Origin: Escherichia coli
GTDB lineage: Bacteria; Pseudomonadota; Gammaproteobacteria; Enterobacterales; Enterobacteriaceae
Length of the DNA: 365 bases
Direction: 5' to 3' (one strand)
NCBI RefSeq assembly: GCF_003334335.1
Contig: NZ_QOWQ01000203.1
Shown here: piece after piece, positions 1 through 365 of the stretch
Layout: each line of letters opens with the position of its first letter
Position numbering within the stretch: the stretch's first letter is position 1
Notes under the pieces: model-generated
Told to the model about the DNA's origin: nothing
Seen by the model: the letters and a program-made list of their open reading frames with translations, nothing else
Database searches by the model: none
Position numbers and translations under genes: made by a program

Positions 1-365
1 AGTCCCCACACCCCGTATGTCTCCACACCATCAGGCAGGGTACTGACCTGTATCCGGTCCGGCGCGGGGTGTGCGGTGATGTCCACACTCACCGGCTTAC
101 CGCTGCCGTTAATCAGGTTCACCGTCGATGCACCTGTCCCCGGAAGTGTCACTTCACGGTCCAGCGTCAGGGTGCGGGTGGCAGCATCGATGGACAGGAC
201 ACGTCCGCCGGTCAGGGTCCCGGCATAGTCGTTATCACAGATTTCAATGATGTCACCGGGTGTGTGCCGCAGCCCCTGAGACCCGAGTGTGAAATCCACC
301 GTCTGCGTTTCCAGCAGTTCGGTCTTTATCACCCACAGCCCGGCACGGTGGGCCTGACCGCGGCT
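1..365 (-). CDS. J: Internal fragment of a lambda-like phage tail tip / host specificity protein (gpJ-family central tail fibre protein); partial at both ends
   Basis: Seen in sequence: the reverse complement read from base 365 gives 121 sense codons with no stop (complement of 365..3), and bases 2..1 begin the next codon. The other two minus-strand frames hit TGA within about 36 and 111 nt. Leucine is encoded almost entirely by CTG, as in well-expressed enterobacterial or lambdoid genes. Recognition from memory, not a database search: motifs such as SRGQAHRAGLW-IKTELLETQTVDF, GDIIEICDNDYAG, TRTLTLDRE and NGSGKPVSV match what I recall of the central region of phage lambda gpJ (about 1130 aa), with many substitutions. 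No start or stop codon lies in the window, so true gene boundaries are outside it. Confidence 0.87.

Follow-up and report, generated by a model that had tools for sequence, protein, structure and literature searches.

High GC content of a 365-nucleotide Escherichia coli segment as a feature of the tail-tip gene J of a lambda-like prophage

Introduction

What kind of DNA is a stretch of 365 nucleotides from Escherichia coli that consists of nearly 62% G and C, and where does that composition come from? The whole stretch that was analysed, all 365 bp of it, is called the window here. A preliminary description made from the letters alone had counted 226 G+C, taken this as higher than in E. coli-like chromosomes, and read it as a weak sign of phage origin that fits the GC-rich late or tail-gene arm of lambdoid phages. 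The count is exact on recount (226 of 365, or 61.9%; C 120, G 106, T 76, A 63).

Phage lambda provides the natural frame of reference. [quoted passage not shown] The GC-rich tail-gene arm is thus a documented pattern and nothing new in itself. We consider it highly probable that the window comes from the interior of an ordinary gene J in a lambda-like E. coli prophage, and that its GC content is accounted for by two effects, one of protein composition and one of codon choice.

Results

Base composition of the window

The elevation extends across the entire window, with 54–67% GC in 100-bp sub-windows. Our host baseline comprises core regions only, 150–175 kb of one genome that contains an exact match to the window, and is not a whole-genome average. 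Three scattered 50-kb core stretches (150 kb) have 52.2% GC, and 101 complete core CDS have 53.5 ± 2.4% GC (maximum 58.1) and a GC3 of 58.4 ± 4.8% (maximum 70.9). Relative to host DNA, the binomial probability of the window's GC is 1.1e-4 (p = 0.522) or 1.2e-5 (p = 0.508). Of 17,317 overlapping 365-bp windows drawn from about 175 kb of core DNA in the exact-match genome, 0.09% are at least as GC-rich as 61.9%, and these are located in uvrD and purL. Among the 365-bp windows of the prophage the proportion is 3.3%, all within the structural arm, and the likelihood ratio of prophage versus core DNA for a 365-bp window at 61.9% GC is about 36.

The preliminary description was right to place the window above an E. 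coli-like chromosome (61.9% versus 52.2% in the sampled host DNA, the top 0.09% of host windows). The sampled core DNA, at about 52% GC, is also far from the 60% at which, by its own reckoning, the composition would have become uninformative. Its caution about a weak signal was about right as well, since a likelihood ratio of about 36 is set against core genes that reach the same value. In short, 61.9% GC is a true outlier with respect to E. coli core DNA, yet as an indicator of phage DNA it is of moderate strength and not diagnostic alone. Within J itself 20% of all 365-bp windows match or exceed the window, whose GC is not unusual for its own gene.

Assignment of the window to the tail-tip gene J

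When all six frames were checked, minus-strand frame 0 was found to be open through all 121 codons. The window corresponds, in frame, to nucleotides 1318–1682 of the 3696-nt gpJ gene in E. coli STEC2018-607 and includes neither the start nor the stop codon of J; its bases 1–2 are part of J codon 561. Its features are as follows:

1–365, minus strand: internal coding fragment of the tail-tip/host-specificity gene J (codons 440–560 of the 1231-codon gene at the exact-match locus)
237–365, minus strand: conserved portion of the hub (the HDIII/HDIV region in lambda gpJ) plus the C-terminus of Phage-tail_3 (residues 440–482, by alignment to lambda gpJ)
3–236, minus strand: most of the predicted beta-sandwich inserted in hub domain IV (residues 483–560, by colinearity with lambda gpJ)
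3–365, plus strand (frame 3): reading frame antisense to J and in register with its codons, 0 stops; compositional by-product, not a gene

The protein encoded by the window matches PHROG 7997 (E = 6.5e-68) and PHROG 31, “central tail fiber J” (E = 2e-54), and its residues 1–54 (window 204–365) match the C-terminal end of Pfam PF13550 (Phage-tail_3; E = 1.5e-9). At the exact-match locus, the complete J gene reaches 2321 bits with the NCBIfam model NF049904 (lambda_TipJ), whose cut-off is 1950. J or host-specificity annotation lies under the match in all 149 phage records with at least 90% nucleotide identity, the majority of which are Stx-converting and other E. coli lambdoid phages, and gpJ features are annotated under the match in 1904 E. 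coli records. On model score, colinearity and synteny alike, the sequence is assigned to the lambda TipJ family, so that the phage origin proposed in the preliminary description stands, with the identification as a phage J gene founded on homology and not on GC. No observation runs counter to this identity or to the figures given here.

Residues 1–120 align without gaps to residues 440–559 of lambda gpJ (PDB 8iyk, 9e7m; E about 1e-49), with 64% amino-acid identity over the window; further structures of lambda gpJ for comparison are available (PDB 8iyl, 8k35). In lambda, residues 483–569 of gpJ form a beta-sandwich insertion in hub domain IV (PMC10721106), and the domain boundaries in the window were carried over from there by alignment and would hold to the extent that the two proteins are colinear. 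The putative beta-sandwich portion (residues 483–560) is the more divergent one; it is rich in Gly and Thr and contains most of the differences from lambda. Lambda gpJ is a low-copy virion protein that forms a trimer at the tail tip (PMC10721106). By homology to it, the J protein described here would likewise form a trimeric tail-tip hub and bind the receptor (PMC10721106, PMC11101478); the C-terminal receptor-binding region falls outside the window. The window allele differs from lambda in several respects. At the nucleotide level the two share only 67% identity, the window allele representing instead the J type widespread among E. coli prophages, including Stx-converting ones (93–100% nucleotide identity), and the gene has 1231 codons here compared with 1132 in lambda, with a different C-terminal region.

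Two readings that would detach the composition from gene J have to be weighed against this assignment. The window might belong not to a phage but to another GC-rich native or mobile component of an enterobacterial chromosome, such as an Rhs core or an unusually GC-rich core gene. The Rhs core has about 62% GC, and GC by itself cannot exclude such an origin given the equally rich windows in uvrD and purL. The homology evidence speaks uniformly against it, however: gpJ annotation is found under every match, PHROGs, Pfam, NCBIfam and PDB all give tail-tip protein J, and lambdoid tail genes flank the locus. A non-phage element, Rhs-like or otherwise, is refuted by this homology and the flanking tail genes, and we regard such an origin as vanishingly unlikely. 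A second gene on the antisense strand might also shape the composition, as plus-strand frame 3 runs through 121 codons without a stop and antisense stretches free of stops reach up to 317 codons in J. This openness follows arithmetically from the lack of TTA, CTA and TCA codons in a gene with predominantly G/C-ending codons: none of the three occurs in the window, and the whole of J contains 1, 0 and 13 of them, respectively, giving 14 stops in the antisense frame over J. Family, RNA or annotation support for an antisense gene was not found at the locus. The antisense frame as a gene is rejected in favour of the codon-usage explanation, and we give it next to no credence. An Rfam scan of the window with E up to 1 produced no match, and a search for repeats in the window returned only short direct and inverted repeats of 10–17 nt, at chance level.

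Distribution and gene neighbourhood

Of 5426 complete E. coli genomes, 1892 (35%) carry the segment, with a median of 2 and a maximum of 11 copies per genome; 6230 of its places are chromosomal and 14 are on plasmids. Near-identical J segments in E. coli genomes constitute a large reservoir for recombination between prophages. Matches with 100% identity are found in the chromosomes of E. coli STEC2018-607 and E. coli NCTC9112 and in one IMG/VR contig (L011). A lambda-type tail-gene cluster is annotated around J in both chromosomes, and in STEC2018-607 the order is tape measure (H), M, L, K, I, J, lom and tail fibre, the same as in lambda. Although the 365-bp segment is identical, J comprises 1176 codons in NCTC9112 (L093 4152–7682) and 1231 in STEC2018-607 (L001 17987–21682). 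The 3′ regions of the two J genes differ, and lom is present at one locus and absent at the other. An identical segment within J genes of unlike length and 3′ region shows that J is mosaic in its part downstream of the window.

The surroundings of J in STEC2018-607 show several further peculiarities. The spacer between I and J (L001 21683–21935, minus strand) has 253 nt and 43.5% GC, compared with 60 nt in lambda. Within it lie an ORF of 41 codons and, shortly before the start of J, a strong hairpin with a subsequent T run that resembles a terminator (21756–21733, minus strand); another terminator-like site is found on the plus strand. PhiR and Stx-converting phages keep the spacer at 77–99% identity. 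A small moron-like insertion is one possible interpretation of the spacer, and a regulatory element within the tail operon is another. The cargo downstream of the tail-fibre genes (L001 7895–14346) consists of a 3993-nt S6-family (SPATE-like) autotransporter peptidase gene and a YadA-like adhesin gene, and a YadA-like gene lies beside the same tail module in NCTC9112 as well (L093 63–1520). The tail end of the prophage (L001 7042–7167) adjoins an ompW remnant beside trp-yciEFG, and the integrase end (L002 20747–22814) adjoins yecE (DUF72)-yecN-cmoAB; the region spanned by the junctions is NZ_CP075697.1, about 388.4–444.6 kb. Junctions from different chromosomal neighbourhoods suggest an inversion or a recombination between two lambdoid prophages.

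Composition of the prophage and comparison with lambda

A per-gene survey of GC and GC3 over the prophage of the exact-match genome (about 55 kb) placed the GC maximum in the tail-tip block. H, M, L, K, I and J have 58–60% GC and a GC3 of 0.66–0.73, the head genes 52–59% GC, and most early, regulatory and integration genes 42–52% GC, with a GC3 of 0.39–0.52 in most early genes. J itself (58.7% GC, GC3 72.7%) lies above all 101 sampled host genes. The fit to a GC-rich late or tail arm, which the preliminary description had put forward, was borne out: GC amounts to 56.5% from Nu1 to J and to 58.6% from H to J, versus 49.1% in the early region, much as the left arm of lambda has 56.9% and the right arm 46.1% (overall 49.9%, b region 36.1%). 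Lambda J has 57.1% GC and its homologous codons 440–560 have 59.5%. The prophage displays all three marks of a GC-rich late arm, namely the split between the arms, a synonymous excess and a window above the host.

[quoted passage not shown] It departs from that landscape in that the maximum lies in the tail-tip genes and not in the head genes, that the excess is specifically G-ending, and that about half of the window's excess is due to amino-acid composition.

The whole prophage, at 52.45% GC, cannot be told apart from the host sample because the GC-rich late arm and the AT-rich early arm cancel. The locus resembles genomic islands recognised by atypical composition insofar as a locally deviant GC flags mobile DNA (likelihood ratio about 36) and is unlike them in that the element as a whole is host-like (52.4% versus 52.2%): upward deviation is confined to the tail and head modules, and the early region deviates downward, so that it is not a GC-atypical island as a whole and a whole-element GC test would miss the prophage. 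The preliminary reading is supported in a refined form, the signal marking the tail module and not foreignness in general.

Codon choice versus amino-acid content

For the separation of synonymous from protein-level contributions, the same protein was recoded 20,000 times with host synonymous frequencies. The window is expected to have 58.1% GC under this recoding and has 62.0% (z = 2.6, P = 0.005); the corresponding expected and observed values for the whole of J are 53.6% and 58.7% (z = 10.9). Because the expectation for J equals, within a fraction of a point, the host coding average of 53.8%, the excess of J as a whole is entirely synonymous. The excess of the window, in turn, divides into about 4 points of amino-acid composition and about 4 points of codon choice, about half each. 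The window protein contains 12.4% Gly and 13.2% Thr, is rich in Asp, and is poor in Lys, Phe, Met and Asn.

Codon usage in J is distinctly unlike that of host core genes, with a distance to the host pool of 0.199 versus 0.074–0.147 for host genes of at least 2 kb. CTG accounts for 87% and CAG for 97% of their codon families, and the shares of AAG (51% versus 25% in the host), ACG (50% versus 29%) and GTG (67% versus 42%) are likewise raised. The shift concerns G at third positions (0.41 versus 0.31 in host genes), C3 being unchanged. Across the late genes (L001 17987–37372), G3/C3 is 0.43/0.23 in H, 0.46/0.28 in L, 0.38/0.22 in the portal gene and 0.41/0.32 in J, compared with about 0.31/0.30 in host genes; this excess of G over C in the late operon amounts to a strand asymmetry on the coding strand.

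Homologous segments of other phages were collected by tblastn of phage records together with the whole genomes of six distant phages. Their GC is 45.5% in a Yersinia phage, 45.9% in Serratia, 46.1% in Mannheimia, 58.7% in Pseudomonas and 70.5% in Burkholderia; it tracks that of the respective genome, with GC2 constant near 0.40–0.47. The record of Salmonella phage SPF_0923 carries obvious host genes, so that its genome GC provides no clean phage baseline. That the GC of homologues ranges from 45 to 70% and follows their own genomes indicates that the gpJ protein does not force the composition. In 80 close relatives from IMG/VR (93.7–100% nucleotide identity), by comparison, the segment always has 60.0–62.5% GC, and a scan of viral contigs with the 121-residue fragment yielded only close relatives with 96–100% amino-acid identity.

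Origin of the GC excess

One account that competes with the one that we favour is that the amino acids of this part of gpJ, a beta structure rich in Gly, Ala, Pro, Arg and Thr, force the GC of the window entirely, with no part for codon choice. The window's GC1 of 0.65 and GC2 of 0.51, which exceed the gene averages of 0.59 and 0.45, its Gly and Thr content, and the 58.1% GC that persists after recoding with host codons all lend weight to this account. It is contradicted by the observed GC, which exceeds the recoded expectation, by the nil effect over the whole of J, and by homologous segments with as little as 45.5% GC. Amino-acid composition as the sole cause, which we judge very improbable, is refuted by the recoding and the distant homologues and stands only for the half of the window's excess noted above. 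Translational selection has been proposed for lambda and might be the main cause, if late genes made in bulk adopt host-preferred G/C-ending codons and GC3 rises as a result; we consider this unlikely. J does shift toward CTG, CAG, CCG, GAC, TAC and CAC, which, by the E. coli codon preferences of Sharp and Li, are preferred in highly expressed genes. J is also enriched in AAG, ACG and GTG, however, which are not known to be favoured in E. coli genes of high expression, and the excess resides in G3 and not in C3. The abundance of the products is also at odds with such selection, as the low-copy J has the highest GC3 of the prophage (0.73), compared with 0.59 in the abundant capsid gene E and 0.57 in the tube gene V. 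The lambda literature provides arguments on both sides, the CAI of structural genes being raised beyond the GC3 and amino-acid controls and GC3 being non-random independently of CAI (Lucks et al, 2008; PMC2266997).

A non-translational variant holds that the tail-tip GC3 excess is a by-product of exceptionally frequent homologous recombination, in the manner of GC-biased gene conversion. The occurrence of the segment in 35% of complete E. coli genomes, with 2 copies at the median and 11 at the most, would provide the opportunity, and G/C-ending codons, G-ending ones specifically, are more prevalent in the low-copy genes J, L, M and H than in the genes of the abundant capsid and tube proteins. 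We regard this variant as improbable; if it were true, GC3 along lambdoid genomes would map the intensity of recombination and not the level of expression.

The account that we favour combines two effects. Protein composition contributes through the hub-core end and beta-sandwich of gpJ, which even under host codons would have about 58% GC, against 53.8% in the host. Codon choice adds about 4 points of GC in the window and about 5 over the whole of J, through a preference of the tail-tip block H-M-L-K-I-J for G/C-ending, especially G-ending, codons beyond that of host genes. This second effect corresponds to what is classically known of lambda, a GC-rich left (late) arm, and is probably a module-level signature that travels with the tail genes when enterobacterial lambdoid phages exchange this module. 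The codon bias probably arises mainly from the mutational, recombinational or ancestral history of the module, with translational selection in a secondary role. We infer that the tail-tip data fit a module-level signature better than pure translational selection, which was assessed qualitatively, because J is a low-copy protein gene with the highest GC3 and because its excess is G-ending and includes AAG, ACG and GTG.

Discussion

The importance of this locus beyond annotation is small. In an E. coli background, 62% GC over 365 bp is a usable, not a decisive, pointer to lambdoid structural genes, and it marks the tail and head module and not the prophage as a whole. That low-copy tail-tip genes have a stronger G-ending GC3 bias than the capsid and tube genes is a poor fit to a purely translational account of GC3 in lambda.
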